Origin: Patescibacteria group bacterium
GTDB taxonomy: Bacteria > Patescibacteriota > Patescibacteriia > SG8-24 > DYFX01
Assembly (NCBI GenBank): GCA_030583805.1
Contig: CP129476.1
Location: 733,640-797,639, forward strand
DNA: 64,000 nucleotides
Direction: 5' to 3'
Shown: piece by piece, positions 41,232 to 62,886 of the stretch
How the letters are laid out: each line of letters opens with the position of its first letter
Position numbering within the stretch: the stretch's first letter is position 1
Program-made: the position numbers and the translations under genes
The notes under the pieces: model-generated
The model's database searches: none
Seen by the model: the letters and a program-made list of their open reading frames with translations, nothing else
What the model was told of the DNA's origin: nothing

Positions 41232-41426
41232 TTAGAAGCCGTATCCCATGTCCTGCCAGAACACGATTTCGCACATCATCCCCTGCTGACGCAGTTGGAG
41301 AAGCTTCTGCATCTCTTCGGCAAAGACGTTGCCAAAGTCGACGAAGTAGCAGCCCTCCTGCTCAACGGGAGCGGGTGCCTCGTGCCTCTGTTGAGGGCGC
41401 GGGGTCGGCGAACCAGAAAAGAACAT
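41232..41426 (-). CDS. possible small protein (64 aa) in the 560-nt intergenic region
   Basis: ORF with non-GC-biased composition (GCYFVDFGNVFAEEMQKLLQLRQQGMMCEIVFW), but no SD. It could be non-coding. Confidence 0.2.
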   Translation of the reverse strand: MFFSGSPTPRPQQRHEAPAPVEQEGCYFVDFGNVFAEEMQKLLQLRQQGMMCEIVFWQDMGYGF

Positions 41427-41608
41427 ACAATGAACGGGTAACTACGGGGTGATTTATTTTTGTTTACATCAAACCGCCCCCGTTCTTGGCGACGGGATGT
41501 CTTCCCAGGATCTTCCCCCGATCGTGTGGCCACACGATCTTTCAGGGTCGTTCCCGGATTCGGCGCCTCCTCCTTATAAGGAGAAGGGGCCTGATCCGAT
41601 GACGACGT

Positions 41609-42583
41609 TCAAGTGCCTTTTTCGTGCCGGCGTATGACGCGGTCCGCGTACCACCTGAGCAGGGAGCGCAGCCCCCAGAACAAGGCGGAAACGCCTCCGA
41701 GGAGGATGAGCAGCGTGAGCCAAGGGATGACCCAGAAGCTGGTGGACGCGATCATGAGGCGCTCGTCTTGGCCGTAGCGCAGCTTCATCTCGGCCGTATA
41801 CCGTCCAAAGGCGAAGTTTTGCCATTGGCGAGCAAGAAGCGAAGCGTCATCCCCGACATTCTTCCGCTGCCATGTGGTGGCGTAGCGGCGTGCCATGCCC
41901 GGTAGAACGCTTTTATATTCGAGGCGGTTCATCGCGAGGGTCGCGACTTCGCGTCCAAGGGCATTCTTTACGGTCACCTCGCCATACGGCCTCAGGTGGA
42001 CCGTGCCCCCGTTCATGACGCTCGCTTCGAACCGCACGGGAAGGCTCGAAGACAGGAGCGGCGCGGAGAAACTGTTGAGGCGCAGGTTTTCGATGACGTC
42101 GCCCTCAACCCTGAGAAGCACGAGCGCGGCGGCGCTTCCGGTCACGCCGACGTTTTCTGCCGTCTCGCCCGCCGCGGTGGCAAGCACGACCGCGCCGAAG
42201 TAACTTCCGGGCCCGGCGTTTTTCGGAACGGCGACTGTGAACGCGAGTTCGGCGCGTTCGCCCGCCAAGAGCGTCAGCTCGCGTTTCGGGAATGAAATCC
42301 ACGGAGCGAGTCCTCGACCATCACGCACTTCTTCCGCGGGGTAGAAGTCGGGAATGCCGAGCGCATCGTCGTCGGCCTTTCCGGCAAAGTTCGCCGTGCT
42401 GGCCGTGAGCGTAACGGGCGTCGGAGATTCGTTGCGCAGGTGAAGCGTTTCTTGCACGACCTGCCCGGGTTTCGCCACGAGGTCGAACGTCGGCGGCGAG
42501 TACGTCAACGCCGAAGCCGTGCCGGGCAGGAGAAGCGCGGCGCTGGCGGAGAGGGCGATAATGGCGGAGCGGAGACGTTTCAT
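41609..42583 (-). CDS. bitopic cell-surface protein, DUF916/DUF3324-like (signal peptide, about 270-aa ectodomain, C-terminal TM anchor and basic tail)
   Basis: Trimmed to MKRLRSAIIALSASAALLLPGTASA. N-terminal SPPTFDLVAKPGQVVQETLHLRNESPTPVTL and mid-protein GPGSYFGAVVLATAAGE fit the DUF916 pattern. C-terminal TM WLTLLILLGGVSALFWGL plus RSLLRWYADRVIRRHEKGT. Confidence 0.6.
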   Translation of the reverse strand: MKRLRSAIIALSASAALLLPGTASALTYSPPTFDLVAKPGQVVQETLHLRNESPTPVTLTASTANFAGKADDDALGIPDFYPAEEVRDGRGLAPWISFPKRELTLLAGERAELAFTVAVPKNAGPGSYFGAVVLATAAGETAENVGVTGSAAALVLLRVEGDVIENLRLNSFSAPLLSSSLPVRFEASVMNGGTVHLRPYGEVTVKNALGREVATLAMNRLEYKSVLPGMARRYATTWQRKNVGDDASLLARQWQNFAFGRYTAEMKLRYGQDERLMIASTSFWVIPWLTLLILLGGVSALFWGLRSLLRWYADRVIRRHEKGT

Positions 42584-42587
42584 AGCG

Positions 42588-43601
42588 TTAGGATGTTCCC
42601 TGACGTTTTCGAGATTCATAGCGGCTGATGACGCGGCGTTCGTACCGATTCAGCAGGAGGCGCAAGAGGAGCGCGAGTACGATCAGTCCGACAAGGATGC
42701 TCGCAATCACCATCCACGGAACAACCCAGAAGGTCGTGGTGGCTGAGAGCAGCTTCTGCTCGCCAGAATCTCCGTAGTTCATGACCAGCGCGGCGGAGTA
42801 GCGGCCGAAGGCGAAGTTTTGCCACTGCTGAACGTATTCGGGCACGGACTTTGGAAGATTCTTTTTTACCCAGGTTTTTTCGAATCGACGGGTGGCTCCC
42901 GGAAGGACGCGGCGCTTGTCGTCGCCGTTCACTTCAAGCGACGCGACTTGGCGGCCGAACGCGTCGGTAATGAAGATGTTGCCGACCGGGATCAGGTGCG
43001 TCGTACCGCCGTTGGAGACGCGGATCGTGAAGTCTGCAGGAAGCCGCGCGTAGTACCGGCTGCTCGAGAAGAAGCTTTCGATCGCGAGGTCGTCGCGCGT
43101 TTCTCCGTTGACGCGGACGAAGATGAGCGCGGACGTTGCCGCCAGGACGCCAACCTTGGCGCCTTCGAGCTGCTGTTCCTCTTGCAGCGTCCCGACGTGA
43201 ATCGCTCCGAAGTGCCCGCCCGGCTGGGCGTCGAGCGGGATCGCCAGCGTAAACGGAATGTTCACGCGCTCGCCGGGACTGATTGTGAATGGCGCATCGT
43301 CTTTGAGCGTGATCCACTCGGCGAGCTCGTGCCCGTTGCGCGATTCGCCGGCGGGATAGAACTCTGGCGAGCCTGTGGTCTCATCACCCGGCCTGAACGT
43401 GAAGTTGAGCAAGCTCGGCTTCAGCGTGATGGCGTAGGGATCCTCGTTATAGACGTGAAGCACGTCTTCGATCACGTCACCGGGACTCGCTGTCAGGTTG
43501 AAGTCCGGGGGCGAGATCGTCATGGCGCGCGCGGAACGAGCGGCGACGCCGAAGACGGCGATCGTCGCGAACAGCGCGGTGAGGAGCGTTTTTTTCAGCA
43601 T
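42588..43601 (-). CDS. bitopic cell-surface protein, paralogue of the preceding gene (DUF916/DUF3324-like)
   Basis: Signal peptide MLKKTLLTALFATIAVFGVAARSARA, ISPPDFNLTASPGDVIEDVLHVYNEDPYAITL, GGHFGAIHV, C-terminal TM plus RLLLNRYERRVISRYESRKRQGTS. It aligns along its whole length with the 41609..42583 product. Confidence 0.6.
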   Translation of the reverse strand: MLKKTLLTALFATIAVFGVAARSARAMTISPPDFNLTASPGDVIEDVLHVYNEDPYAITLKPSLLNFTFRPGDETTGSPEFYPAGESRNGHELAEWITLKDDAPFTISPGERVNIPFTLAIPLDAQPGGHFGAIHVGTLQEEQQLEGAKVGVLAATSALIFVRVNGETRDDLAIESFFSSSRYYARLPADFTIRVSNGGTTHLIPVGNIFITDAFGRQVASLEVNGDDKRRVLPGATRRFEKTWVKKNLPKSVPEYVQQWQNFAFGRYSAALVMNYGDSGEQKLLSATTTFWVVPWMVIASILVGLIVLALLLRLLLNRYERRVISRYESRKRQGTS

Positions 43602-43716
43602 AGGTAGTAGTTATTCCCCTTTCGGGACTTCGCAGCATGCCGGCGCATGCGGCGGAGCCCCGCGCCCTCCGGAAGAGACCGGAGAGCTGGGGCACGCACG
43701 CGATGGTTTCGCGCGC

Positions 43717-44907
43717 TTAGAACGTGCCGGTCGCGATGAACGTGAGCACGTCGACGTAGTCGTTCGCGGCCGAGGTGATGGCGGAGATCGCCGCTTTCAC
43801 CAAGATGTCGGCCGTGTTGTTCGCCGTGCCGTCGAGTGCTGCCGCGTTCGTCGTAACGATGAACTGGGCGGCTGCGGAGTCGACGCCTCCGACGCGGTTG
43901 CCGCCGTTCGAGGTGCAATCGCCGTTATACGGCGCGACCGCGGTGGCGGAACCGGTGACGACGTTCGTCGCGGTGACGCACAGTCCGTACCCTTCCGTGC
44001 CGGCCACGAGATCGGTCACGCCGCCCGCACCTGCGGTGTAGGTCGTGCCGATCGTATCGCCGCTGGCCGAGGATTCGAGCGCATCGGCCGACCCACTGCC
44101 CTGCACGGTCACCAGCGCGCCGCCGGAGGCGTTGGTGTCGAGATCAAGGCAGATGTGGTTGGTCGCGGTCGAAACGGCTGCGGACGTGAGCGTGCCGAGC
44201 GAGACGGCGTACGGCGTGTTCGATTCCGATCCGCACGAGGATTGGATATCGATGTCGAAGGTGAGCGTCGGGCTGACCGTCGCGGTTACCGTGACCTGAT
44301 CATCGTCCATGATCGAAACCGCGACGCTGGTCGAGTGCGCCGATACGACGCCCATGTCGGTCATGGTGACGTCGACCGTTTGTGAACCGGCAGTGCCGGG
44401 ATTCGTCAGCGTGCCGTCAGCAGCCGTGCCAAGGATCTGGAAATCGATGACAGACGTCGCGGTCGATGACGTATACGAAGCGCTGCATGCCTTCACACGG
44501 AAGATATTGGCCGACGTGTCGACAGCTACGCCGACATCGTTGACGCCCGTCCCACAAGAAACGTCCGAGACTCCGGCGCCTTGCGCAACCGTCGTGACGG
44601 TTCGACCCGTGCCGTCGATGAACACGAAGTCGCTTGTGGCCCAGGTTCCCGAAGCCGAGCTGGTGAAGCCTGCCGGGAAATCGACGGCGATTACATCACT
44701 CGTCGTTGCCGAGCCGCTAAACGTATAGCTCAACGGGAGCGTCAGGCGGATCGTGTGGTTAGACGTGGTCGAGATCTTGAGCCGCGACATCGTATCGCTG
44801 GTCGAAGTAAAGCCGTCTGCGCGCACGGGAGCGAGAGGAAGCACCAATGATGCGACCGTCGCGAGTGCGGCCAGAAAGGCTGTTACTCTATTCAGGATCT
44901 TTTTCAT
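43717..44907 (-). CDS. secreted Ser/Thr/Gly-rich beta-strand protein (396 aa) with C-terminal motif NDYVDVLTFIATGTF
   Basis: Signal peptide MKKILNRVTAFLAALATVASLVLPLAPVRADG. The C-terminal ~200 aa are paralogous to the 258-aa protein (TPYAVSLGTLTSAAVSTATNHICL...; GYGLCV). Confidence 0.6.
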   Translation of the reverse strand: MKKILNRVTAFLAALATVASLVLPLAPVRADGFTSTSDTMSRLKISTTSNHTIRLTLPLSYTFSGSATTSDVIAVDFPAGFTSSASGTWATSDFVFIDGTGRTVTTVAQGAGVSDVSCGTGVNDVGVAVDTSANIFRVKACSASYTSSTATSVIDFQILGTAADGTLTNPGTAGSQTVDVTMTDMGVVSAHSTSVAVSIMDDDQVTVTATVSPTLTFDIDIQSSCGSESNTPYAVSLGTLTSAAVSTATNHICLDLDTNASGGALVTVQGSGSADALESSASGDTIGTTYTAGAGGVTDLVAGTEGYGLCVTATNVVTGSATAVAPYNGDCTSNGGNRVGGVDSAAAQFIVTTNAAALDGTANNTADILVKAAISAITSAANDYVDVLTFIATGTF

Positions 44908-45176
44908 ACGTACGTAATGAATGTTCTCTCAAGTACAATTCGAAGCCGCAATGGCTGCGGAGTCCGCACCTTCCCCTCGATGAACCGAGGAGCGGTGAGT
45001 CCGGCGCTTTCCCCGGCACGTGCAGGGGAAAGAGCGATTCCGCAGAAACGGTAATGCGCGCGGTCACGCGTTACCGTCGACCTTTTAGTTCCGGCCTTAG
45101 TGGCCGGGAGGAGCCTCGAAGCGTTCGGGGCTCTTCCCGGCCCTCCTGCACCGGACGATGCAGGAGAGCGTTCCGT

Positions 45177-45953
45177 TCAATACGTTGCGGTGACCGTGAT
45201 GGTCAGCGTGTCTTGGTAATCGTTATGCGCGGGGGTCACGGACGAGACCGCGGCTTTCGTCAGAAGTTCTCCGAAGGCGTTGGTGACGAAGCCGCTCGAG
45301 AACCAGACCGTCTGGTTGGCCGTCGTGAGGGCGCCGACCGCGTGATTCGTCGTGGTATCGCAGCTGCCGTTGAACGGCGTCGTGGCCGTGAAGCCGTTTT
45401 GGGCGTTCGAGCTGCAGACGCCGTATCCGGCCGTGCCCGCGACGAGCGTCGCCGTGTTCGAAGCGATGACGTCAGCCGGCGTTCCATTCGAGGCAAGACC
45501 CGCGTTCGCATCCCTGATTTGCACCACTTGCCCGCCCGGGGAGTTCGCGCTGACGCGGACGCAGATGCGATTCGAGGCGGTCGTGACGGCGCTGGTCGTT
45601 AGCGTGCCGAGCGGCACCGTATAGGGAGGGCTCGACGAGCTCGTCGCGTCGCAGGCTCCGGACTGCACGGCATAGTTCACGGTCAGCGTGATGTCTTCCC
45701 GCAAGCACTGATAGCCGACGCAAGCGAGATAACTGGCGCTTGAGAGGTCTTCCCCCGTGGGCGAGGACACCTCGGCGATCGTATCTTCGGCGATATAGCT
45801 CGCGGACGTACTGCGTTCTCCGCCGCCAGAGAAGGCGTCGAATGGGATGCGGTAATTTTGAGACGTCATGACCTGTGCGAACGCCAGTGCCGGCCAGAGT
45901 GCCTGGCACGCAATGACGGCGATCGTCGCAAATTGTCGTGTTAAGCGTTTCAT
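45177..45953 (-). CDS. secreted beta-strand protein (258 aa), paralogue of the 396-aa protein C-terminus; ends NDYQDTLTITVTATY
   Basis: Signal peptide MKRLTRQFATIAVIACQALWPALAFAQ. Shared blocks PPYTVPLGTLTTSAVTTASNRICV and GYGVCS. The terminal alternating beta-strand is like pilin/SCPU/TasA-type donor strands. Confidence 0.6.
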   Translation of the reverse strand: MKRLTRQFATIAVIACQALWPALAFAQVMTSQNYRIPFDAFSGGGERSTSASYIAEDTIAEVSSPTGEDLSSASYLACVGYQCLREDITLTVNYAVQSGACDATSSSSPPYTVPLGTLTTSAVTTASNRICVRVSANSPGGQVVQIRDANAGLASNGTPADVIASNTATLVAGTAGYGVCSSNAQNGFTATTPFNGSCDTTTNHAVGALTTANQTVWFSSGFVTNAFGELLTKAAVSSVTPAHNDYQDTLTITVTATY

Positions 45954-45962
45954 ATATCGGCG

Positions 45963-48900
45963 TTATGGCGTTTGTTCAGTCGTCGTTCCTGATTCCGTCT
46001 CCGGCGGAGGCTCCGGCGCTGCAGGCGGCTCTTCGACAACGGGTTCCGGCGGCGGGGGCTCTTCTTCTGGAGGCGTTTCCGGCGTACCGCTGCCCGATTC
46101 CGTCACTCCTCCCGTCGGAGGCGTGCCCGTGCCGGATTCCGTCGGTTCATCTTGCGGCGCTTCCTCTTCAACCGCCGCCTGCTCAAGCAGGCCGTCGATC
46201 GGCAAGATCCAGTACGTGAACGGCGTCTCATCGATTGCTCCCTGGGCAAGCTTCAGGATGAACGAACCCTGATGCTTCTCGGACACCCACCAGTTGGAGC
46301 CCGGATTGCCTTCGAAGGTGATCACGATGACCGATTCCTCCGTCACGTGCGGGTTTTCCACCATGATCGCGTCGTACCCTGCGCGGAGCCGCGCCTTGCC
46401 GACAACGCGGTCAGCCGCCGCATCAGCTCGCAACGTCAGTTTTCTCGTGTTCACTTCCTTCGCCTCGATGTGTTCGGCGACGAGATAGCCGTCCGAGGAC
46501 ACGCTCCAGAGGCCGCTGGTCGAGACGATGGCGGAGACGTTGGAGAGCGTCGAGTTCTTGAAGTCGAGGAGGGATTCGCCCGTGATCGACAGCGCACCGC
46601 CTGCGGTCGCTCCCGCGAGCGCGGCCGGGCCGTTCCACCACGAGGGGTTCACGAAGACGGTGATGCGTCCGGTGCCGCTGCCGTTCCAGCCTTCAAGCGC
46701 GATACCGATGACGCGTCCGGCTTCCGCCGCCTTCATACCGACGCCAGGCGTCGAGGACGAGGTGATCGGGTCGCCCGGCTTGATCTCGCCGGATTCGGTA
46801 TTCACCTTGACCGGTACGCGGCCGGCGAGAGCCACGGGCTGGGTACCCGCCGTGCTCTTGCCCGTCAGGAAGCCGGGCTTGGTCGAGATGACGCCGAGGA
46901 GGGTGTTTTCGTAGGCGGCGTCGGACTTCTTCACGCCGTAGCCGTTGGTATTCGCCGCGTCGACCATGACGATGTCGCCGGCGTCGAGGTCCGGTGCCGC
47001 CGGGAACGTTTCGGCGTAGTCGAGGCCGCCGTTCACGGTGAGGGAACCCGCCAAGGCGAGGTCGCCAGCCTGGTTCAGCGAGGCGAGCGTCTGGCCGTTG
47101 TCATTCTTGAAGGTGAGTTGGTAGGCGCTGTCGCTCGTGACGTCGTTGCGGATCGTGATGTTGCGGGTGACGGCGGTGTTCGAAGCGCTGCTCCAAGCGG
47201 AACCGCCGAATTTCAGTGCATACGAGGAGAAGGCGGTGCCCGTCGCCGAGGCGATGTCGAGCGGCTTGAAGGCGAAGTCGTCGGCGAAGATCGAGGACGC
47301 GCCGTCGTTCGTGATCGAGAGGCCGAGGTGGAAGCCAGGGTTCACGAAGATTTCAATCTTGCCTTCTCCGGGACCTTCCCAGTGATCAAGCGCGAAACCG
47401 ACGATCATGCCAGGCTTCGTCGCTTTCATGGCGACGCCTGAAATGGACGACGTCGTGAGCGGGTCGCCCGGACGAATCACGCCATTCGCGGCGGTAACGC
47501 GGGTCGGGACGCGTCCGATCAGGGCCACGGGAGCGGTGGTCGATGAAGAGGCCGTTACACCCTTACCGAAGGATTGGTACGGGTTGGTGGAGATGACACC
47601 GATGATCTTTGCCTCGTACGGAGCGGTCGATTCCGTAAGGATCGACGACGTGTTCGTGGCGTATGTTTCGAGACGCACGCCCGTCAGCGGGTTGAAGAGC
47701 TCGTCCTGGTACGAGATGACCGCGTCGGTGGCGATGAGCAGGGTTCCGGTCGGATACGCTTCTTCCAAGGCGTACCACTCGGCAACGTCGGACGGCGTCG
47801 AGCTGCACTCCCGGAACTCAACGTCGCCAAAACTGTCGGCCGTGTCTTTACAGACGCCAATCGTCGTGTCGCCCGTAGGGTTAATGTCGAACTCGATGTT
47901 GCCTTCGACGTCGAGTGTCGCTCCCGGAGCGGTGCCGCCGATATGTACTTGACCACCCGCGTCGATTGAGAACGGCGTGGAGTCGCTGCCATAGTTGCCG
48001 CCGTCGTCTTCAACACGAAGTGCAAGGCCAGTACCGGCGTAATCGATCTGCAGACCAGCGCCGCTCGCTGCCGTGTTGTTCTGCTCCACGCGCAACACGT
48101 CAGCCGTATGCGTACAGGTGCCGAGCGTGGTGATACAGCCGTCGGAGAATTCACCGACCGCAGCACTCAGCGTCAACACCTGGGCACTGCCGTTGATGGT
48201 GGGCTGACGTACCGCGCGGAAGGTCGAGCCGCCGCTCGTGGTGGTCGTGGTATACGTCGGCTGCTGGTTCAACAAGATCATCGAGCCAGTGCTCATAGCC
48301 GCGGCCGTCGAGATATTTTCGATCAAGAGACCGGCACCGGACGAGATATCATCGAGACTCACGGAAATTGCGTTACCCGTCGTGATGGTCTGGGCCTGGA
48401 GCTGGAGCGAGTTACTGTTTGTGCGCGTGGTCAGGATGTCGAGGTCGGCATTCGGGGTGCTGTCACCGATACCGATTTCTCCGGAAGAATCAATCGTCAG
48501 ACGGGCTGTGTCGGCGGTACCAAGGTGCAGAGAGTTGCTGCCGTGAATCTGGAGCGAGTTGGAAAGGACGCCGGACAAGATATCACCTTCATCACCAATA
48601 CCGATGGATGCGATGAGGCTGCCCGCTTCCGTGTACTCAATCTGGGCGAGCGTGGCGCCGCTGTTAGTGTTGGCGATCCTGAGGGTCGTTCCGGTCGTAT
48701 CGGAAATGTGCAGTTTGCCTGAAGGAGAAGCAGTACCGATACCGACGCTTCCGGAGCTCGCAATGTAAATGCCGGAAGTTTCCGCATGCTGCGGGCCAAT
48801 CTGAATCGCCTGGCCGGAGGAGTAGATCTGCGCACGGCGGCCGTTCGTGTCGCGCCAGCCGAGCTGCAGGATCGACGTGCCGCTCGTGTCGTAGGCGATC

Positions 48901-57900: not shown

Positions 57901-58019
57901 TAGGCTGGCGTCGGGAATGAACCCGACAGCAACGACAAGACCAGGGCGGCCAAAACGGCCGTCCTCGCCGCGCGTTTCAACGCGCGGAGAAGCGTAGCGA
58001 TGTACGCGGTCTCTCTCAT
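45963..58019 (-). CDS. giant secreted repeat protein (about 4,018 aa) built from >8 copies of a ~130-aa module, with an acidic Pro/Glu/Thr-rich C-terminal tail
   Basis: Signal peptide from M16 (MRETAYIATLLRALKRAARTAVLAALVLSLLSGSFPTPAYA). Recurring module ...ANRLTVGSATSTFEVN..GNLIKVNNVPYSWPSSQGGASTVLQNDGNGNLSW...NLNQAYLAATGSPEISITPSVGALTIADTLSGTGNIFEVQNRTTAAGDYS.RYLTVSAT.... Near-identical DNA copies occur inside the gene. Confidence 0.75.
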   Translation of the reverse strand: MRETAYIATLLRALKRAARTAVLAALVLSLLSGSFPTPAYAANSVPKVLNYQARVTDSGGVPVPNGALSVIFRLYDGDGTCLYSARGSCGTPTAKSVTVTNGVFSTQLGEAGDNEIPDGLFDNNVVTLGITIGADAEMTPRKRLTAAAYALNADRLDDLDVTSSGSTTAYIPSTTANGNLVITGDPQGTGVGNGSLYINPANASASETLFGIADNGGVRFQIDKEGDITHTGSLLATAASSTAQFVFRGAASQSNNIFEVQSTITDRLFSVSATATSVGAGARFIVGTTNTLVVNSSGNFETINGLPARFPSSQGALGSVLRNDGSGNFTWVDASGLVNLNQAYLASTSTAEISLTPSIGALTIADTFSGTGNIFEIQDRTNAAGDYSSRYFTVSSTSTYLAGNVGVGTAPSSQYKIDVLDTSANGAGMRFINSNVTNSNGVFIQTQTSSSGDAALNVTTTAGANTAFTVRGNGTVGMGATPPTASDRLYVTSSEARIKLSASGGDGNDAAFWLTGGATNASWMMLTNRSSLNGTADSLGFYKASGTTGTKLVIQDNGNVGIGNLKPASRLTVGSGTSTFEVDESGNILKINNVVYSWPSSQGAASTVLQNNGAGTLSWVAANGLVNLNQAYLASTSTAEISLTPSIGALTIADTFSGTGNIFEIQNRTNAAGDWSTKYLTVSSTNTLINTASASISSALAISNPAGGTVVAITSSAGGVEIYGIGENGFNLYSDDSIFFRVDANGDSSEAYSWLNGAGGTVMTLDESGILALGSSSSTSALNTANARVTGNLTPSVDNTYSLGDPALRWKDLWLSGGSANIAYDTSGTTIMQLGFNTTNGLRGLIKTPAEVPLTLRAGNQNQGITIDAAGNVGIGTQNPQYSLHIAGSLPAMVINHGTESRVNLATGGTLRFIINQDATSGTIGTNGSGGNLFIQAGGSNRLNFYTTSVTGLNTLTPSAFLSVASTVASPTFNVFEIQNRTNTGGDYSYRYFTVSSTSTLINPFNNLGHYNVGIGNGAPANRLTVGSTTSTFEVDFSGDIRKINNVIYSWPSSQGAASTVLQNNGAGTLSWVAANGLVNLNQAYLAATGSPEISITPSIGALTIADTLSGTGNVFEVQNRTTAAGDYSQRYLTVSATSVAISSNAPTATLHVRHTVDNDGTAVRVTTFGGTDLFTIDHQGNIVAGRAFELSRSATIAQDADEFWPFPALSIAPVAGFAQNLIQATVGGTPMFMVGPTGLVGIGNSAPANRLTVGSATSTFEVNAAGNLIKVNNVPYSWPASQGGSSTVLQNDGNGNLSWAAAGGSTNLNQAYLAATGSPEISLTPSIGALTIADTLSGTGNIFEIQNRTTAAGDWSTRYLTVSATATTIANQIRTTYTAGPALVLATAESDNTIQVTGDGNFGIYGEGGMILQLDSDNDGSNAEFVIVNGAFSTIFAGSENGRFGVGNLTPTSLNATFTAAALVGTTNNIFEIGNSDLSQKYFSVSATATLVNATNNALDHKFSIGNLNPANRLTVGSATSTFEVNQSGNLVKINNVPYSWPSSQGGASTVLQNDGNGNLSWAAAGGSTNLNQAYLAATGSPELSITPSVGALTIGDTFGGTGNIFEVQDRTNAAGDYSIRMFSVSATGTRIASDVFFASGGGNDASVAFIDDPDTGFANGGTNRIDFITAGQTKIILEDNFTLFGSTELIVNGGVIDFGASSGFLAATPTILEVGGAATTLIMGANGPGTTRIRNSLVVNGDPQGTGLSNGTVYVNPSAPTGNETLFSIANNGSLRFKLDAEGDIDVTGSMLAVSASTTSQFQLRGFAAQSNNIFEVQDSFTNRLFSVSSTSTRYINRLIAPAHAVNQGLQIPTFAGVPTAVTGTAEGDIVWNSTGDALYVYNGAGFTELSTGSTPTMNATYLAATGTTEIYTNSTQGALTIADTLSGTGNIFEVQNRTTAAGDYSSRYFTVSSTSVYVTPLPIGTGTFQVVASNSVIATTTSGAGASPRGQALAVIANTSSADIHAFSVHSNNVAGNAMKFAVMTNGKVLIGGSSYTPTATLTVRDSVATPTHNLFEVSNSLNTSPYFTISSTATIIGSASTTYALTTTGARVTGNLTPSADNTYTLGDPALRWKDLWLSGGSANIAYDTSGTSILRLGWSDTNGRRALIHSSGQQIQITPSLGDSQGISISPSGLVGIGTTNPIGKLDIQSTSTSVYLTRFSTDNNGNQIVVQKARGSSGSELVVENGDDILNWSSWGYDGDEYIPAAFIKVSVDDTPGNNDMPGRITFMTTANGSSTSVERMRLNNAGNLAIGTNAPSARLTVADDAVSPTSNIFEIQNTSGVGGYTHRYFYVSSTGTTITNLTVTGTCTGCGGSSTMLQTFNSSTSTAELFANGTQGGLTIADQLTGGINKGTGIGNLFEVQSRTTTAGDFDGRYFTVSSTAVLINPGNNITAYRLGINTATPSAPLHITGASETFRIQASNGTGNSGLGYITFFDQNNSTRRGYIGDADTGNTDLYLHAETGALRIGDSSGSSALILTGGRLGLGNTSPANKLTVGTATSTFEVNAAGNLIKVNNVPYSWPASQGGGSTVLQNDGSGNLSWSVVSSGGNLNQAYLAATGSPEISITPSVGALTIADTLSGTGNVFEVQNRTTAAGDYSQRYLTVSATSVAISSNAPTATLHVRHTVDNDGTAVRVTTFGGTDIFTIDHQGNIVAGRAFELSRSATIAQDADEFWPFPALSIAPVAGFAQNLIQATVGGTPMFMVGPTGLVGIGNSAPANKLTVGTATSTFEVNQSGNLVKINNVPYSWPSSQGGASTFLQNNGSGTLTWVSAPSAPLNSAYLAATGSPEISITPSVGALTIGDTIGGTGNIFEVQNRTNAAGDYSIRMFTVSSTATRIATDAFFASGGGNDASIAFIDDPDTGFANGGDNRIDFITAGQTKAILDDNFTLFGSTEFTVNGGTIDIGASFGQLAATPPTLEFAFAATDLTMGATTGTTTIRNSLTVGSASTTHVITTTGARITGNLTPSADNTYSLGDYNRRWKDLWLSGGSAKIAYDTSGTSILQLGWRDTNGRRAQIYSSGQAIQIGPQHAETSGIYIASSGSVGIGTASPSGKLHISDTTGTTLRIANTNSGATLAQIEYTEAGSLIASIGIGDEGDILSGVLSNSLQIHGSNSLHLGTADTARLTIDSSGEIGIGDSTPNADLDILTTRTNSNSLQLQAQTITTGNAISVSLDDISSGAGLLIENISTAAAMSTGSMILLNQQPTYTTTTTSGGSTFRAVRQPTINGSAQVLTLSAAVGEFSDGCITTLGTCTHTADVLRVEQNNTAASGAGLQIDYAGTGLALRVEDDGGNYGSDSTPFSIDAGGQVHIGGTAPGATLDVEGNIEFDINPTGDTTIGVCKDTADSFGDVEFRECSSTPSDVAEWYALEEAYPTGTLLIATDAVISYQDELFNPLTGVRLETYATNTSSILTESTAPYEAKIIGVISTNPYQSFGKGVTASSSTTAPVALIGRVPTRVTAANGVIRPGDPLTTSSISGVAMKATKPGMIVGFALDHWEGPGEGKIEIFVNPGFHLGLSITNDGASSIFADDFAFKPLDIASATGTAFSSYALKFGGSAWSSASNTAVTRNITIRNDVTSDSAYQLTFKNDNGQTLASLNQAGDLALAGSLTVNGGLDYAETFPAAPDLDAGDIVMVDAANTNGYGVKKSDAAYENTLLGVISTKPGFLTGKSTAGTQPVALAGRVPVKVNTESGEIKPGDPITSSSTPGVGMKAAEAGRVIGIALEGWNGSGTGRITVFVNPSWWNGPAALAGATAGGALSITGESLLDFKNSTLSNVSAIVSTSGLWSVSSDGYLVAEHIEAKEVNTRKLTLRADAAADRVVGKARLRAGYDAIMVENPHVTEESVIVITFEGNPGSNWWVSEKHQGSFILKLAQGAIDETPFTYWILPIDGLLEQAAVEEEAPQDEPTESGTGTPPTGGVTESGSGTPETPPEEEPPPPEPVVEEPPAAPEPPPETESGTTTEQTP
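49560..50230. repeat. intragenic near-identical direct repeat, copy A (~670 bp, ≥95% identical to copy B)
   Basis: Directly aligned by eye with 54110-54780. For example ...ggatcaggttttgagcgaagccggctaccggcgcgatagagagggctgggaacggccagaattcgtcggcatc... matches over hundreds of bp. The listed ORFs 49812..50042 and 54360..54590 translate almost identically. Confidence 0.8.
54110..54780. repeat. intragenic near-identical direct repeat, copy B
   Basis: See copy A. The offset is about 4.55 kb. Further diverged copies lie near 48.9, 51.6, 53.2 and 55.5 kb. Confidence 0.8.
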
Positions 58020-58106
58020 GTCGTTTTCGGGTGTTTTCACCCGGTTCGGTTCCCTGCCAGGCAAGGCGCCGAACCGGATGCCGGAGCGTTGGCTCCGGAC
58101 TCCGGC

Positions 58107-61100
58107 TTATTCGGGACGTTTCTCGCGCATGGGAATGTCTCGACTGACCACGCCGGCCTCGCCGCCCTTCTTCGTCAGATCAAGCTCATTCGTCTTCGTG
58201 GGCTCGTACCCGGGCTTTTCCACCGTGATGAAGTACTTGCTGCTTCCAACCAGGAAGTTGTAGCGGCCCTTGCTGTCAGCGATACGCGATTCAAGCGTTT
58301 TGTTGTATTGCGTTTCGATGATGCGTGCCACCGCGAACGGAATCGGTCTCTTCGTATGCTCGTCGTAGATGATTCCCCAGTTTTTTGGCCTGGGCGTACG
58401 CGCCAACCGGCGGAAGAGCAGGTAGAGAACGAGCTGCGCGACGACGAGTATATATAGGTATAGGTGTCCGTAGAGCAGCGCGGCGATAAGAGTCATGACG
58501 ACGCTCGAGAATGCCAGCACGTTTTGGACGCGGCGGCCGAGTTCTTCCAGGAACAGCCGGCGCGTGGTTTTGATCATTTCGATCGGATCAAGCGGGACGT
58601 TGGCGGTAATGATTCCGCCCTCGCTGCTCACGACGATCGATTCTCCGTGATACAGATCGAGGAATTGCGCGTCTTCCTTGCGTCCTGTCAGGTATTTTGT
58701 CGGGAAGACATACCCGGGCTTGGTGACTTCAAGGCGGTACTCGCCCGGTTCCACGATGAACGCGTAGCGTCCCTGCTTGTCCGTCACGGCCGTGCGCACG
58801 AGGCGGTTGGTCGTCGTGCGGTAGAGGCGGATAGAGGCCAGGTCGACCGGGAGTTTCGTAAGCGCGTTGTAGACCGTGCCGTATCCCTTGCGCTTCCTGC
58901 GGCCGATCAGCAGGAGCGGCTGCGTCAGGAGGAAGTAGAGGTAGCTCACGATGCTTGTCGCCTGAACGGCCGTGGCGACGACAGCTGTCGTTACGGCGGC
59001 GGCGGCCGGCACGAGGAACTGCGTCGTGGTCGTTTCGACGCGAGGGTCTCTGATGACCTCGTTCGTGAGGATCCTCGTGATGTACTCGCCTTGCGCACCG
59101 AGCGCCTTGGCGATGTTCGCGATGTTTTCCGTGACGGGCGCGCCCGGCACATAGACCTCGGTCACGGACGGCGGCACCGCAATCATCTCGAAGGACGCGT
59201 TCACGACTTCCGTCGCGAGATTGATCGATGCGCTCTCGTACGTGCGATAACCGTCGCGCGTCGCCTGAATGCGGTATTCGCCCGGAGGCGCCATGAAGGC
59301 GTACGTGCCGGCTCCGTTCGTCACGAACGGATTGGCCTGCTGGTACGGCAGCGCATCCCAGTCGATCCAGCTGCCAACGCGTTTTTGCAACTTGACGCTG
59401 ACGCCGGAGAGCGGGACTTGCTGGTCTTCTTGCGCATGCGTGATCACGCCGAGTGGCTCGACGCGGACCCTGATCGCGGCCGTCGCCGTTGCGCCGTCAT
59501 CAAAGATGGCGGTGATCGTTCCCGTGACGGGACCGATCGCAGACGGCGATGTAATGTCGGCGACGTAGCCTTCTTCCGGCACTGACAAAGCCGTGCGTTC
59601 AAGCAGGTACGAGCCGGAAGCGAGGTTGAGGGTGAGCGTCGTGACGTTCCCTGTTACCGCGGCGATCGGAACAAGAACGGTCATCGAGCGGTTCGGCAGA
59701 ATGCGATATTCCCCGCTCGCGTTCTTGTGGAGCTCAAGCGTGCGGCTGAGCGCGAATGCCCGGACGAGGTTCGCGTTGAGCGCATGCGTCGGCGTCGGCG
59801 CGGCGCAGTCGACGGAGCAGCTGAGATAATCCTCGTTTGCATCGCAGATCGCGTTTCCGCAAGAAGGCGGAGGTGCCGCGCAGTCGGCGGGGCAGCTGAG
59901 ATAGTTTTCACCGGCGTCGCAAATTGCGTTTCCGCAGACGGGCGCGGGCGCCGTGCAGTCGGCAGGGCAGCTGAGGTAGTTTTCTCCCGCGTCGCAAATT
60001 GCGTTTCCGCAAGAAGGCGGCGGACCGGACGGAGTACCGGATGCCTGAGCGGGGCCCGAGAAGTTTCCGGAAGTATCCCTGGCGAAGATCGAGTAGTAGT
60101 ACGTCGTTCCGTTGACCAGGCCCGTGTCGTTATAGTTCTGGCCGCTGCCCGTGTAGATCGCCGTCCCCTGTCCTGACGTGGCCGGATATCCCGTAACGGA
60201 GCGTTGAATCTGAACGTTGGAGAAATCCACGTCGCCCGGATTCGTCCAGCTGAGCGCGTTAACGGAATCGCCGGCCATCACCGTGAAGTTGGAAACGGGG
60301 CCTGGCGGCACGGTATCGAACGGCGTGCCGCTGCCGATGGCACCCGACGAGAAGTTGCCGGAATTGTCGTATGCGAACGCCGTGTAGTAGTACGTCGTGC
60401 CGTTCACGAGTCCGGTATCGGTCATCGACGTGCCGATTCCGTCATAGACGTTCGTGCCGGCTGTCGGGCTTGCCGGATGAGCCGTCGTTGAACGCTGGAT
60501 CCTGACGCCGGCGAAGTCCGCGTCACCCGGATTCGTCCAGCTGAGCGCGTTCTGCGCATTACCCGGAGTCACGTTCAAGCTGCTGACGTTCGAAGGCGGC
60601 GTGCTGTCGGCAAGCGTCGTAAACGTCTGGTCGGTCGACGTCGCGCCGTTAAACATCGCGTCGGCCGAGCTCACGCTGAAGTGGTACAGCGTTCCCGCTG
60701 CCAATCCGTTCAACGTGATTTGGTGATTGGCGACCAAGCTTCCGCTCGAAACAACCGCGCCGTAGGAATCGGTGAGGCCATAACGCACTCTCGAGTCTGC
60801 AAGTTCATCCGTCGCCCAGTTAACGCGCGCGGACGTCTGCGTGATCGCGTCCGTGAAAATATTTGAAATCGTCGGAGGAACCGTATCCGCCGTCGTGAAG
60901 GTGAAGTCCCCTGATGATGCAGTGTTGTTGGAAGCGTCCTTCGACGTCGCGCGGAAGTGGTATGTCGTGCTGGGGCTCAAGCCGGAAAGATTCACGGTGT
61001 GCGCATTCGTCATCGTGGCATTCGACGCGTTGCTTCCATACGAAGCCGTGAGACCGTAATCAACGAGCGCGTCGGCGTCCTCGTTCGTGTCCCACGTAAT

Positions 61101-62087
61101 GCGCGCGGTCGTTCCCGTGATCAAAACGGCCTGCACGTTGCTAATCGACGGCGCCGTCGAATCCGGCGTCGTAAACGTGAAGTCGCCCGAAACGGTCTCA
61201 GTCGTACCGACGCCTTGCGAGCGTACGCGGTAGTGGTATGTCGTGCCCGGCGTCAGCCCGGAAAGATGCACGGAATGGTTGAAGGTGTTGCCGGGGGTTG
61301 AGGCATTGCTGCCGTAAGCAGCCGTTAAGCCGTAGTCCACCACGCTCGTTGAAGACACGTCAGTCTCCCACAGAACGTCCACGTCGGTTTCCGTAAGGTT
61401 CAACGTGCGGACGTTCATGATGACCGGCGGGTTCGGCGTGCCGCCTCCGCCGCCGCCTCCGCCGCCGCCGGCAACCTCGGCCGACACCGTCACCTGATCG
61501 TTGTCATTGTTCATCGTGTAGGCGAGGCCGGTATCGCTGAAACCGCCCGCAATGCCCACCGCATGAGCGAAAGCGCCTGAAGGATTGACGATTTGGTTGG
61601 CTCCGGCCCCTCCGGTGGTGGCGTTCAAGCCAATGCGGATACGCACGCAGGTATCGGTCGGGATCTCCCCTGCTGCGGCATCCGTCGGCGGCGTGAAGGT
61701 CACAACCTGCCCAGAAATACCGACGCCCCACGTCGGGCTCGTGCTGGGCGATGAAGCCAGCGTCTTGTCGGTAAACGATCCCGTGCAGTCGTTGGTCGGC
61801 GCGGACGTATCCAGCGCCAGGTCGATGTCACCGACCCCAATCGACGAGAGGTTATAGTCAGACTCGTACGTCACCGTAATGGTGTCGCCTGAACTTTGAA
61901 CACCGGTCGGTGTCACGAATTTGATTTCGTGATCCGCCGACGCATTTACGGCCAACCTGGTCACCAGGACGGAATAGCCGGTAATTGTTGCCGCTCGTGC
62001 AGCAAACGACAACAAAAACACGGCCATGGCCCCGATGAGGACAGGCAGGAACTTGGTTAGATTGTGGGCGCGGCGCTGGGACGACAT
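58107..62087 (-). CDS. large cell-surface protein (about 1,326 aa): signal peptide, FN3-like repeats, three Cys-rich CGNAICDAGENYLSCPADC repeats, three CarboxypepD_reg-like beta-sandwich domains and TM segments
   Basis: Trimmed to the ATG at 62087 (MSSQRRAHNLTKFLPVLIGAMAVFLLSFAARA). FN3-like blocks with TTYHYRV/TTYHFRA/GTLYHFSV and NGTTYYY. Triplicated CGNAICDA(G/N)E(N/D)YLSC. GxYxF...PGEYR...GY motifs three times. Confidence 0.7.
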   Translation of the reverse strand: MSSQRRAHNLTKFLPVLIGAMAVFLLSFAARAATITGYSVLVTRLAVNASADHEIKFVTPTGVQSSGDTITVTYESDYNLSSIGVGDIDLALDTSAPTNDCTGSFTDKTLASSPSTSPTWGVGISGQVVTFTPPTDAAAGEIPTDTCVRIRIGLNATTGGAGANQIVNPSGAFAHAVGIAGGFSDTGLAYTMNNDNDQVTVSAEVAGGGGGGGGGGTPNPPVIMNVRTLNLTETDVDVLWETDVSSTSVVDYGLTAAYGSNASTPGNTFNHSVHLSGLTPGTTYHYRVRSQGVGTTETVSGDFTFTTPDSTAPSISNVQAVLITGTTARITWDTNEDADALVDYGLTASYGSNASNATMTNAHTVNLSGLSPSTTYHFRATSKDASNNTASSGDFTFTTADTVPPTISNIFTDAITQTSARVNWATDELADSRVRYGLTDSYGAVVSSGSLVANHQITLNGLAAGTLYHFSVSSADAMFNGATSTDQTFTTLADSTPPSNVSSLNVTPGNAQNALSWTNPGDADFAGVRIQRSTTAHPASPTAGTNVYDGIGTSMTDTGLVNGTTYYYTAFAYDNSGNFSSGAIGSGTPFDTVPPGPVSNFTVMAGDSVNALSWTNPGDVDFSNVQIQRSVTGYPATSGQGTAIYTGSGQNYNDTGLVNGTTYYYSIFARDTSGNFSGPAQASGTPSGPPPSCGNAICDAGENYLSCPADCTAPAPVCGNAICDAGENYLSCPADCAAPPPSCGNAICDANEDYLSCSVDCAAPTPTHALNANLVRAFALSRTLELHKNASGEYRILPNRSMTVLVPIAAVTGNVTTLTLNLASGSYLLERTALSVPEEGYVADITSPSAIGPVTGTITAIFDDGATATAAIRVRVEPLGVITHAQEDQQVPLSGVSVKLQKRVGSWIDWDALPYQQANPFVTNGAGTYAFMAPPGEYRIQATRDGYRTYESASINLATEVVNASFEMIAVPPSVTEVYVPGAPVTENIANIAKALGAQGEYITRILTNEVIRDPRVETTTTQFLVPAAAAVTTAVVATAVQATSIVSYLYFLLTQPLLLIGRRKRKGYGTVYNALTKLPVDLASIRLYRTTTNRLVRTAVTDKQGRYAFIVEPGEYRLEVTKPGYVFPTKYLTGRKEDAQFLDLYHGESIVVSSEGGIITANVPLDPIEMIKTTRRLFLEELGRRVQNVLAFSSVVMTLIAALLYGHLYLYILVVAQLVLYLLFRRLARTPRPKNWGIIYDEHTKRPIPFAVARIIETQYNKTLESRIADSKGRYNFLVGSSKYFITVEKPGYEPTKTNELDLTKKGGEAGVVSRDIPMREKRPE

Positions 62088-62641
62088 GCGTCGATTTCCA
62101 CAAAGCGCGCAGCATTCGGGCACGACGAAAAACTCCGACAAGGGTCGTGATTGGACAACTCGAAAGGAGCCTCACGCGTTATGGGCGCAAGCCTATTTCC
62201 TTCACGCAGATACGCCTCCCCTTTCCCCGCTGACCACGGGAATTAGGTACTACAAAAACAATTCTGCGAGTAGGAGGCGGGACTCGCGGCCCCGTTCATT
62301 CAGGTCGTCTTTACCTGAACGATTCGCATAGCCACCTTGGTAATCACCCCGTAGTGGATGCGAGAAGAATGCTGCACGATATATTCTCCTCGCACTATGC
62401 AAGGGCATAATACCATAAAATAGGGGAAAAGTCAATCCAAATCTGGGCTAACCTTAGCCTATATATTTCTTTTCCACAGGTCATTTATTTGATATTTCAC
62501 AACTTGTACACAGAAACTCACACTCTATCCACAGAGTTGTGCACAGTTGTGTGTGAGTTGTCTTACTTGTCAAGTATATATTAGACAAGCACCTCTTTTC
62601 TCTAATGTTACCACCCAGGTTTTTTAACGTGGTTTACTTAT

Positions 62642-62655
62642 GTTTCATGTGAAAC
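62642..62655. repeat. palindrome GTTTCA-TG-TGAAAC, copy 1 (arms extend to 8 bp: atgtttca..tgaaacat)
   Basis: Read directly from the sequence. Confidence 0.85.
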
Positions 62656-62736
62656 ATCCACTTTTCTTTATGTGACATGAGGCAATTTTACCTGAGTCTG
62701 AACTTCATTCACTACCGTAGAATGGCCTTAGTGATT

Positions 62737-62750
62737 GTTTCATGTGAAAC
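62737..62750. repeat. palindrome GTTTCA-TG-TGAAAC, copy 2
   Basis: Read directly from the sequence. It lies 95 bp from copy 1. Confidence 0.85.
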
Positions 62751-62840
62751 ACACATACCTAGTATTTCGCGCGACCGTACAAGTTAATTGCTTCCCCAAC
62801 TTCTACAACGTCACATTTGCACGCCAGGGAAGTCAGCACT

Positions 62841-62854: not shown

Positions 62855-62886
62855 AAAACACCCCCGAAAGAATCGGAGGTGCTTTG

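Follow-up and report, generated by a model that had tools for sequence, protein, structure and literature searches.

A candidate Pam-type pilus locus with a giant fibre gene in a patescibacterial genome

A block of six co-oriented genes in an ultrasmall patescibacterial (CPR) genome, described in a first-pass annotation as a candidate lineage-specific adhesion or surface-fibre system, raises the question of what its products would build at the cell surface. The locus was analysed in a window of 64,000 nt (contig CP129476.1 of assembly GCA_030583805.1). The block most likely encodes a thin surface pilus of Ig-like subunits, with membrane-anchored chaperones assisting. More specifically, sequence, structure models and analogy point, with a probability of roughly 0.65, to an usher-less, chaperone-assisted donor-strand-exchange pilus of the Pam type accompanied by a giant host-binding fibre.

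Gene order and upstream region

All six minus-strand ORFs were confirmed (Table 1) and an N-terminal signal-like hydrophobic segment is present in 6/6 of the block proteins; the reading as a co-oriented cell-surface system is supported. In 5′ to 3′ order the junctions measure ∼42–87 bp, 9 bp (giant gene stop to small pilin gene), 269 bp and 115 bp, and the chaperone 2/chaperone 1 junction is a 4-bp gap or a 32-nt overlap depending on the start chosen; the 269- and 115-bp spacers thus contradict the earlier picture of short or overlapping junctions throughout. Both spacers fold strongly and show 80–90% nucleotide identity in relatives. For the 269-nt spacer, nucleotide identity is 77–85% in most close relatives (L001, L002, L006–L009, L011) and 69–76% over shorter stretches in L012–L014, with an RNA folding energy of −133.9 kcal/mol (z = −6.4).

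The order giant, small pilin, two-domain pilin, chaperone, chaperone, TPR is kept in 10/10 relatives and reaches down to about 50–60% protein identity. The expected co-occurrence of all six genes holds for 5/6, plus the downstream TPR gene, in strict order, whereas the FN3 gene is not constant: L014 has a homologue immediately 5′ of the giant gene, L001 has none at this position. In every relative the small pilin is directly preceded by the C-terminal part of the giant protein, and wherever a relative's locus reaches beyond the chaperones, the TPR gene stands 3′ of them (59–84% identity and synteny in L001, L002, L005, L006, L008, L009 and L011–L014). This downstream gene had been called Wzy-TPR; the TPR part holds, whereas Wzy finds no support, since for the polytopic N-terminal 491 aa Pfam yielded no family and the PDB no sequence at E ≤ 1.

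The AT-rich region said to precede the block was confirmed (62142–62886, GC 0.44 versus about 0.61 elsewhere). It carries three copies of a palindrome for which 0.01 would be expected from shuffles and of which the rest of the window holds 0; these copies look like putative operator sites. Promoter and terminator scans gave matches at chance level, and the sigma-70-like candidate about 270–320 nt 5′ of the FN3 gene is one consensus match, no more than chance for the scanned region, of which the position only is suggestive.

Table 1. Features of the locus, with coordinates in the window
Feature	Position	Strand	Description
TPR membrane protein	38615..41047	-	810 aa; polytopic, about ten TM segments, C-terminal TPR repeats
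64-aa ORF	41232..41426	-	in 561-bp spacer; conserved, without signal peptide; called as gene in L001
Six-gene block	41609-62141	-	co-oriented ORFs, all six present
Membrane-anchored chaperone-like protein 1	41609..42583	-	324 aa (NCBI call, start at 42583; ORF 41609-42619, 336 aa); WxLIP/PapD-like Ig pair, then TM helix
Membrane-anchored chaperone-like protein 2	42588..43601	-	337 aa; signal peptide, two Ig-like domains, C-terminal TM helix
Two-domain pilin	43717..44907	-	396 aa; HMM parse: N-domain residues 33-200, C-domain residues 212-396
Linker strand DDDQVTVTATV	44275-44307	-	residues 201-211 of two-domain pilin; conserved, inter-domain
Structured spacer	44908..45176	-	269 nt, small pilin/two-domain pilin; conserved, strongly folding
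Small pilin	45177..45953	-	258 aa; signal peptide, N-terminal extension, pilin C-domain
Small pilin C-domain	45180-45686	-	residues 90-258; pilin-type
Small pilin N-terminal extension	45687-45875	-	residues 27-89; repeated S-x-N/S-Y motifs, C78-C83 pair
Giant fibre protein	45963..58019	-	4018 aa, ATG at 58019 (ORF 45963-58064, 4033 aa at full extent); secreted, repeat modules
FN3 stalk protein	58107..62087	-	1326 aa, ATG at 62087 (ORF 58107-62141, 1344 aa if TTG start used)
Pilin-type N-domain of FN3 protein	61473..61988	-	HMM match, residues 52-223
Linker-like strand DNDQVTVSAEV	61473-61505	-	end of FN3 protein N-domain; G10 follows directly
Sigma-70-like promoter candidate	62407..62435	-	TTGACT, 17-nt spacer, TG, TATTAT
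Palindrome GTTTCAYRTGAAAC, three copies	62642-62655, 62737-62750, 62841-62854		spaced 95 and 104 bp, AT-rich upstream region

Chaperone-like and pilin-like proteins

The two bitopic paralogues (40% identity; chaperone HMM E = 1.6e-105 for chaperone 2) both end in a TM helix, which spans residues 298–316 in chaperone 2. The AF2 model of chaperone 1 (pLDDT 91.9) consists of two beta-sandwich domains and the TM helix, and its best PDB matches are the WxLIP structures 9i25_C (E. faecium; Foldseek E = 9e-13) and 9i1y (E about 1e-12), with RbmA next; behind it come four chaperones of chaperone-usher systems, CfaA, CsuC, FimC and Caf1M, with E between 1e-9 and 1e-7 and a target-based TM-score near 0.55. 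HHalign of the chaperone family against six Firmicute WxLIP gave 97.6% (E = 3.7e-12) over 217 columns spanning both domains, and PF06030 is matched by 25/44 family members. The bitopic paralogues are genuinely, if remotely, related to Firmicute WxLIP (DUF916/DUF3324); the DUF916/DUF3324-like label given to them earlier is convincing at the family and profile level, with the window proteins themselves below the Pfam threshold (DUF916 at 19.3 bits versus a cut-off of 27.3 for one, no match for the other).

The 258- and 396-aa proteins have a C-terminal Ig-like domain in common, the model of which best matches the donor-strand-exchange pilins TLP-1b, CsuA/B, CfaB and CupE. The Pfam SCPU, PapD and Fimbrial families gave no matches. 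The proposal of a donor-strand fibre is supported, and in fold both small secreted proteins belong with the pilins completed by a donor strand (SCPU/Csu, CFA/I, TasA-like). Their C-termini, NDYQDTLTITVTATY and NDYVDVLTFIATGTF, had been quoted correctly, yet the donor role assigned to them is disfavoured: this conserved strand sits within the confidently folded C-domain (pLDDT 93–96) and, judged from the Pam and chaperone-usher pilins, is more likely to line the groove as acceptor strand. The open groove itself was not seen in the monomer model, where the C-domain is complete and confident. The donor strand is likely the inter-domain linker DDDQVTVTATV; linker and C-domain are also better conserved than the N-domain (0.66 versus 0.48). 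The 396-aa protein is a candidate shaft subunit with a role like PamA/PamB, and the 258-aa protein, which has the C-domain and no DDDQVTVTATV-type linker, a candidate tip pilin with a role like PamT. With 1170 representative clusters, the C-domain family is too widespread for a lineage-specific system.

The kinship of the bitopic proteins to WxLIP in sequence and fold could also indicate a non-polymerising WxL-type surface complex, in which WxLIP-like proteins dock C-domain proteins non-covalently and no filament forms. A set of at least one WxLIP-like protein with a small and a larger C-domain protein mirrors the published WxL cluster definition, and the C-domain also ends 700–2300-aa proteins with adhesin-like passenger domains (NHL propeller, DUF11), like large WxL proteins. 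We consider this unlikely, as the C-domain has no detectable WxL similarity (HHalign only 0.2–0.6%; PF13731 matched by 0/36 family members), which also bears out the reported lack of a WxL motif in the block. Moreover, both the two-domain pilin and the FN3 protein have a conserved linker strand, and homologous architectures in Saccharimonadia form filaments, according to a preprint (bioRxiv 10.64898/2026.03.03.709456).

This preprint (Troman et al.) first described Pam pili, in 2026, in Candidatus Mycosynbacter amalyticus (Saccharimonadia), and places them mainly in Saccharimonadia and Microgenomatia. HMMER/jackhmmer searches from the window pilins did not reach Saccharimonadia-type loci, which were bridged only by profile–profile comparison: HHalign of the two-domain pilin family with ten pilins of these loci gave 98.6% (E = 5.7e-16, 306 columns) and of the small pilins 97.6%, versus 0.2% for a chaperone–pilin control. 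The ten comparison pilins flank chaperone homologues; the L003 genome is Saccharimonadales in NCBI, and ATP synthase genes also lie next to L004, L021 and L023. With two-domain pilins, a C-domain-only pilin and PapD-like chaperones with a TM helix, the distant loci fit the pam operon, and their neighbours are ATP synthase, MazE and tail-fibre-like genes. Pam membership of the window locus rests on these loci, judged Pam-like by architecture and context rather than by the PamA–D sequences (WP_2607632xx; PamA/PamB structures, PDB 25PZ/25QA). As both pilin types are tied to them, the partner set is not new, contrary to what had been proposed.

Anchor, giant fibre and proposed assembly

The FN3 protein runs from a signal peptide through a pilin-type N-domain, a linker strand, a G10 linker and five FN3 domains to three Cys repeats of the CGNAICDAGENYLSCPADC type and then three CarboxypepD_reg domains interleaved with three TM segments; Pfam and the Cys repeats confirm the composition first noted. 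An N-domain HMM built from two-domain pilins matches it with E = 3.8e-17 (9.4e-16 for the L014 homologue). As it has the N-domain and linker strand, followed by G10 with no pilin C-domain and hence no acceptor domain, we infer that this protein anchors the pilus in the membrane and terminates it.

The giant protein is built of modules that recur 5–13 times (motif recurrences) and is reminiscent of tail fibres or of the Bdellovibrio MAT fibres: its N-terminal domain weakly matches NCBIfam Bdello_MAT_N (E = 1.7e-5, below the family cut-off) and an internal segment matches PDB 8on4 (Bdellovibrio MAT fibre, E = 2.3e-4). It has no Pfam or PHROG match, so that Peptidase_S74, suggested earlier, finds no support.

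Homology, models and gene order suggest the following course of assembly for a locus known from its genes. All products would leave via Sec, the signal peptides being evident in the sequences. Each membrane-anchored Ig-pair protein would then cap the open groove of a pilin C-domain with its own beta-strand, as fold and family, the analogy with the WxLIP–WxL complex 9i25 and AlphaFold models of PamC/PamD lead us to infer. The 396-aa pilin would polymerise as DDDQVTVTATV takes the place of the chaperone strand in the C-domain of the subunit added before it, with the 258-aa protein probably at the distal tip, presenting its conserved S-x-N-Y extension. In genomes carrying the gene, the FN3 protein would donate the last strand, so that growth ends and the pilus is tied to the membrane. 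The giant fibre may be a separate adhesin or may be carried by the pilus.

Rather than marking the tip, the 258-aa protein could be a self-polymerising subunit using its N-terminal extension as donor strand, in the manner of TLP-1, TasA or chaperone-usher pilins. The extension is highly conserved though modelled at low confidence, and it recurs in the small pilins of the distant loci, with HHalign at 80% and an nte HMM match at E = 4e-7. However, in place of one long alternating strand it holds a Cys-x4-Cys hairpin and three short repeats of the S-x-N/S-Y type, and gene position and architecture are those of a C-domain-only pilin beside two-domain pilins, making this option more doubtful still. 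Least probable is that the genes are mere neighbours without a common machine, the giant fibre, FN3 and TPR genes being unconnected with the genes for pilins and chaperones: the FN3 gene missing upstream in L001, the giant and TPR proteins sharing no domain with the pilins and the chance-level promoter and terminator scans are outweighed by the identical giant-to-TPR order in the relatives, the 9 bp between giant and small pilin genes, the conserved spacers and the pilin N-domain and linker in the FN3 protein.

Comparison with known systems

With Bdellovibrio MAT and phage tail fibres, the giant protein shares, besides the above matches, its length and modular repeats, and a host bacterium living on other cells; it differs in that the matches stay below curated cut-offs. 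The TLP-1a/b environmental fibrils (CryoSeek, PMC11494351; PDB 9ikk) have a sequence identity of only 8%; they take the donor strand from the N-terminus of subunit n+4, have no known chaperone context and the closest predicted TLP-1 homologue is in a Flavobacteriales MAG (PMC11494351). Chaperone-usher pili, above all the archaic/alternative Csu, CupE (SCPU) and CFA/I, have the two-domain chaperone fold, a conserved C-terminal strand ending in an aromatic residue and donor-strand complementation and exchange as assembly logic in common with the window system, which, however, has neither outer membrane nor usher, tethers its chaperones to the membrane, would use an inter-domain linker in place of an N-terminal extension as donor and has an extra N-domain in its pilins.

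Firmicute WxL clusters (WxLIP, PF06030/PF11797; PDB 9i25, 9i1y) are alike in their WxLIP, to which the bitopic proteins are homologous over the whole Ig pair and the C-terminal TM helix of which they share, in the combination of a membrane-anchored Ig pair with a small and a larger protein with a common C-terminal domain, and in an Ig-pair beta-strand proposed to complete the partner domain. In contrast to these clusters, the window proteins leave PF11797 unmatched and have the NQIDKxxxYFDLK motif shrunk to PP.FDL, whereas the partners have a pilin-like rather than a WxL domain and a linker strand permitting polymerisation.

Pam pili share with the window locus CPR hosts, an extra C-domain-only pilin, two PapD/FimC-like chaperones that end in a TM helix, the lack of an usher, paired cysteines in the pilins, a linker and C-domain more conserved than the N-domain (reported for Pam pilins in bioRxiv 10.64898/2026.03.03.709456) and a tail-fibre-like gene in the neighbourhood. 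The window locus is unlike them in its host, a patescibacterial MAG with RpoB closest to Uhrbacteria/Parcubacteria, in pilins too divergent for HMMER and in the lack of adjacent ATP synthase or MazE genes. A homologue of the candidate PamR-like membrane protein of the distant loci was not found in the window, which lacks an RbmA-like PamR and has instead the 1326-aa FN3 stalk protein with pilin N-domain and linker; the ∼60-residue extension of the small pilin is not described for PamT, and the 4018-aa fibre gene and the TPR membrane protein are fixed in the block. The window locus is thus most likely a divergent form of the Pam type, set apart by its giant fibre gene and by a predicted membrane anchor of another kind.

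Layout and conservation of the six-gene block

The six minus-strand ORFs reported by the first-pass annotation are present as it gave them, and we read the block, with a probability of roughly 0.65, as encoding a donor-strand-exchange pilus that is assembled with chaperones and no usher, has a variant anchor and is associated with a giant fibre. Signal-like N-termini are found in 6/6 of the products, and the junctions between the genes measure 42-87 bp, 9 bp, 269 bp and 115 bp, followed by a junction where the genes either overlap by 32 nt or lie 4 bp apart. NCBI proteins QY323_04140 and QY323_04155 match the bitopic and small secreted proteins at 100% identity. Immediately upstream of the block lie tRNA genes and immediately downstream a TPR membrane protein and then a tRNA; the 'Wzy' label previously given to the TPR gene finds no support in Pfam or PDB. 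The window lies on a 1.17-Mb contig of a Patescibacteria (CPR) MAG. Its RpoB is nearest to proteins that bear the names Candidatus Uhrbacteria or Parcubacteria (73-76% identity), which would place the organism in GTDB class ABY1. Promoter and terminator scans performed no better than chance.

The order giant fibre, small pilin, two-domain pilin, chaperone, chaperone, TPR membrane protein is identical in all ten relatives recovered (close ones, obtained by locus search with a narrower alignment) wherever sequence is available, and the shared order persists to about 50-60% protein identity. The co-occurrence previously expected of all six families is thus seen for five genes, together with the TPR gene, but not throughout for the FN3 gene, which precedes the giant gene in the window and in the relative's locus L014 and is absent from that position in L001. 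A phage origin of the block was rejected because there are zero PHROG matches and the chromosomal synteny is stable.

Several further elements were recorded in the window (table). The non-coding spacers within the block retain 73-90% nucleotide identity in most close relatives, which makes them at least as conserved as coding sequence; in three loci (L012-L014) they show lower identity or were undetected. Such spacers could act in RNA processing, stability or attenuation and so adjust the stoichiometry of the pilins. The palindrome GTTTCAYRTGAAAC has no further copies in the window (0.01 expected), and the three copies look like putative sites for a dimeric regulator. The 64-aa ORF (MFFSGSPTPRPQQRHEAP...WQDMGYGF) has no signal peptide. 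As 23S and 5S rRNA were not found within the 64-kb window that holds the 16S gene, the rRNA operon appears to be unlinked.

Positions of additional features in the window
Feature	Position	Strand	Remarks
14-bp palindrome GTTTCAYRTGAAAC, 3 copies	62642-62655, 62737-62750, 62841-62854		between tRNA-Ala and FN3 gene, about 100 bp spacing
Giant gene	45963-58064	-	long near-identical internal duplications
Non-coding spacer, 269 nt	44908-45176		fold z=-6.4
Non-coding spacer	43602-43716		
Non-coding spacer	41048-41608		
Conserved 64-aa ORF	41232-41426	-	between chaperone genes and TPR gene; gene call in relative L001
Terminator-like hairpin	41153-41172		after 64-aa ORF
16S rRNA gene, then tRNA-Ile, tRNA-Phe, tRNA-Pro	3603-5115, 5945-7640		

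Bitopic proteins and the Firmicute WxLIP family

The two chaperone-like paralogues (324 and 337 aa, 40% mutual identity) both carry a C-terminal TM helix. PF06030 (WxLIP_PGBD, formerly DUF916) scores the protein at 41609-42619 with 19.3 bits, below the cut-off of 27.3 (E=1.2e-3), and does not match the 337-aa paralogue; it matches 25 of 44 chaperone homologues (best E=1.6e-7), and one homologue (P0080) clears the cut-off with 30.8 bits. PF11797 (WxLIP_HBD, DUF3324) gave zero matches among the window proteins and the 44 homologues, with a Firmicute WxLIP matching at 5e-38 as the positive control. HHalign of the chaperone family with six Firmicute WxLIP sequences taken from plasmid records returned 97.6% (E=3.7e-12) with both domains covered, the alignment running into the second domain (query 50-273, WxLIP 53-281), and a PDB search with the family profile found EfmWxLIP1 (E. 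faecium WxLIP1) at E=9e-4. The AF2 model of the chaperone (pLDDT 91.9) consists of two beta-sandwiches and a TM helix; its top PDB matches in Foldseek are WxLIP structures (9i25_C and 9i1y, E about 1e-12), followed by RbmA and then many chaperone-usher chaperones (CfaA, CsuC, FimC, Caf1M and SafB, E 1e-9 to 1e-7). The window chaperones also share the WxLIP architecture of signal peptide, two Ig-like domains and C-terminal TM helix. On the homologue counts, profile, model and HHalign, therefore, the DUF916/DUF3324 likeness initially assigned to these proteins holds at superfamily level, but not at Pfam thresholds, where PF06030 is sub-threshold and PF11797 silent.

A WxL cluster is defined as a WxLIP grouped with at least two WxL-domain proteins (PMC10599100), and such partner proteins, unlike in those clusters, were not found beside the window chaperones. 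Their absence, already remarked in the first-pass annotation, is borne out by PF13731 (WxL), with no match at E<=1 in 36 members of the family of the C-domain (the Ig-like C-terminal domain common to the 258-aa and 396-aa secreted proteins), and by HHalign against genuine WxL/WxLIP clusters on plasmids of Enterococcus, Listeria, Lactococcus and Lactiplantibacillus. The C-domain aligned with ten WxL domains from the plasmid loci at 0.2%, a value obtained with a small, poorly aligned WxL profile that makes very remote homology possible, and the pilins of distant (Saccharimonadia-type) loci aligned with WxL domains at 0.2-0.6%. WxL homology of the small secreted proteins was rejected, as the profile comparison with real WxL clusters gave no signal. 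The main rival to the pilus reading is a WxL-like docking complex that does not polymerise; we consider it quite improbable.

In the Firmicute plasmid loci themselves, some of the proteins that occupy the WxL position of WxLIP clusters have neither tryptophan (L016 5180-5788 and L020 5225-5812); these end in ...GTISYQLYNT and ...GTIDYNISTN and are annotated merely as hypothetical or cell-surface. Among plasmids, E. faecium WxLIP1 is matched best by CP069367.1 102106-102474 (52% identity), where no feature is annotated. The record is labelled Klebsiella pneumoniae, in which a Firmicute surface gene would be unusual; it may be mislabelled or mixed.

Pilin-like proteins, FN3 protein and giant fibre

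The pilus reading draws on the secreted proteins as well. The C-domain comprises about 170 residues; Cys, Gly and DY positions in it are invariant, the last residue is aromatic, and the modelled fold matches chaperone-usher-type pilins. In the 396-aa protein, an N-domain, known from the HMM domain parse, and the linker DDDQVTVTATV precede the C-domain, and linker and C-domain are conserved more strongly than the N-domain. The 258-aa protein has the C-domain, lacks the N-domain and DDDQV-type linker, and bears a conserved extension of 60 residues in which S-x-N/S-Y motifs recur. Neither protein matched Pfam, NCBIfam, PHROG or PDB sequences, and among the families put forward in the first-pass annotation SCPU (PF05229), TasA (TasA/camelysin) and Peptidase_S74 gave no match. 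The C-domain family extends to 1170 representative clusters of proteins of 116-2306 aa, always with the domain at the C-terminus, and some members bear NHL-propeller or DUF11 passenger domains. In chaperone-usher pilins the conserved C-terminal strand acts on the acceptor side and, by analogy, the conserved C-terminal strand of the window pilins is more likely an acceptor-side strand than the donor it was first taken for; the wider idea of a fibre joined by donor strands is supported.

The pilin N-domain HMM matches the FN3 protein over residues 52-223 (E=3.8e-17), as well as the L014 homologue, and the match ends with DNDQVTVSAEV, which corresponds to the pilin linker. Next come a G10 tract and an FN3 stalk, with no C-domain, and the C-terminal end has three TM segments alternating with CarboxypepD_reg domains. 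Since a strand-donating, non-accepting, membrane-anchored protein fits what a terminator-anchor of the pilus requires, the sequence suggests that the FN3 protein takes that role, and we propose it as a functional substitute for PamR, the RbmA-like membrane anchor of the Pam pili (bioRxiv 10.64898/2026.03.03.709456).

The giant protein is secreted, rich in Thr, Gly, Ala and Ser, and built of modules repeated 5-13 times by motif counts. It gave nothing above threshold in Pfam, NCBIfam or PHROGs, including no Peptidase_S74 C-terminal chaperone domain; a local similarity to PDB 8on4 was found (E=2.3e-4). The internal duplications of its gene (e.g. the segment SNAPTATLHVRHTVDNDGTAVRVTTFGGTD...GIGNSAPAN, present twice) and the range of homologue lengths, from about 2000 to 4033 aa, suggest rapid module gain and loss. 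As the giant gene is fixed beside the candidate tip pilin gene, the fibre becomes a candidate for host recognition if the pilus reading is true.

Relation to Pam and chaperone-usher pili

Patescibacteria, which live attached to other microbes, account for a substantial part of bacterial diversity; to our knowledge, little is known of how they attach. Pam pili have been reported in the Saccharimonadia member Ca. Mycosynbacter amalyticus (Pam proteins WP_260763277-289; PDB 25PZ/25QA). In their pilins a linker donor strand joins an N-domain to a truncated Ig-like C-domain, with linker and C-domain likewise conserved above the N-domain; the tip pilin PamT consists of the C-domain alone, the PapD/FimC-like chaperones PamC and PamD each have a TM helix at the C-terminus, no usher is present, and the neighbourhood holds ATP synthase, MazE and tail-fibre-like genes (bioRxiv 10.64898/2026.03.03.709456). 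The main text of the same preprint makes no mention of WxL or DUF916.

Distant homologues of the window chaperones sit in loci of Pam-like layout: L003 belongs to a genome named Saccharimonadales by NCBI, and L004, L021 and L023 adjoin ATP synthase genes, L004 also MazE. HMMER and jackhmmer gave no bridge from the window pilins to the Saccharimonadia-type pilins, and HHalign alone connects them. The two-domain pilins aligned with those of the distant loci at 98.6% (E=5.7e-16, 306 columns), the C-domain alone at 95.4%, the N-domain alone at 86.2% and the small pilins at 97.6%, with chaperone against pilin as negative control at 0.2%. By way of these Pam-like loci, rather than of the PamA-D sequences, we infer that the block probably belongs to the Pam kind of pilus. 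The initial view that the partner set is new and lineage-specific is not supported, given this tie and the 1170 clusters of the C-domain family.

Adjoining the chaperone in the distant loci is a membrane protein that has the motif HHKHSGKL..HTSY at its N-terminus, two Ig/PKD-like domains and, at the C-terminus, a TM helix (L021 11036-11989, L023 11027-11986, L024 11017-11961, L022 4526-5545, L003 3656-5056). This conserved protein may be the PamR equivalent of Saccharimonadia-type loci; the HMM of the candidate (L021-L024) matches L003 and nothing in the window or close relatives.

This kind of pilus was described recently; new and most useful here are the sequence tie of Pam-type chaperones to WxLIP, the anchor predicted in the FN3 protein and the broad distribution of the C-domain family. 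If the pilus reading is true, Pam-type donor-strand-exchange pili occur well beyond the lineages of the first report, Pam-type chaperones are related in sequence to Firmicute WxLIP, WxL clusters could be understood mechanistically, with a chaperone-like strand completing a partner domain, and a stalk protein with only the donor half of a pilin is a concrete anchor candidate. A broader reading, which we regard as doubtful, would place WxLIP-like proteins and Ig-like pilins in a single ancient monoderm system, with chaperones tethered to the membrane and subunits joined by donor-strand exchange, and would so unite the WxL surface complexes of Firmicutes, the Pam pili of CPR and the chaperone-usher pili of Gram-negatives. 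Here it would have become a composite organelle in which the terminal strand comes from the membrane-anchored FN3 stalk protein and the S-x-N-Y extension of the small pilin displays the 4018-aa MAT-like fibre at the pilus tip, giving a long-reach device to capture host cells.

Compared with known systems, the giant protein shows weak, sub-threshold similarity to Bdellovibrio MAT fibres (NF053851, 24.7 bits, cut-off 60). The usher and chaperone families of chaperone-usher pili (PF00577, PF00345/PF02753) are matched by none of the seven proteins searched, and the chaperones of those pili are soluble and periplasmic, whereas those of the window are membrane-anchored and alike at fold level only. 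Relative to Pam, ATP synthase and MazE genes are lacking among the immediate neighbours of the block, and the 60-residue extension of the 258-aa protein, a PamT-like candidate in having the C-domain without N-domain or DDDQV-type linker, is not described for PamT. The 396-aa protein has the two-domain pilin organization, by HMM parse and C-domain fold, and the two chaperone paralogues with their TM helices fit the description of PamC and PamD.
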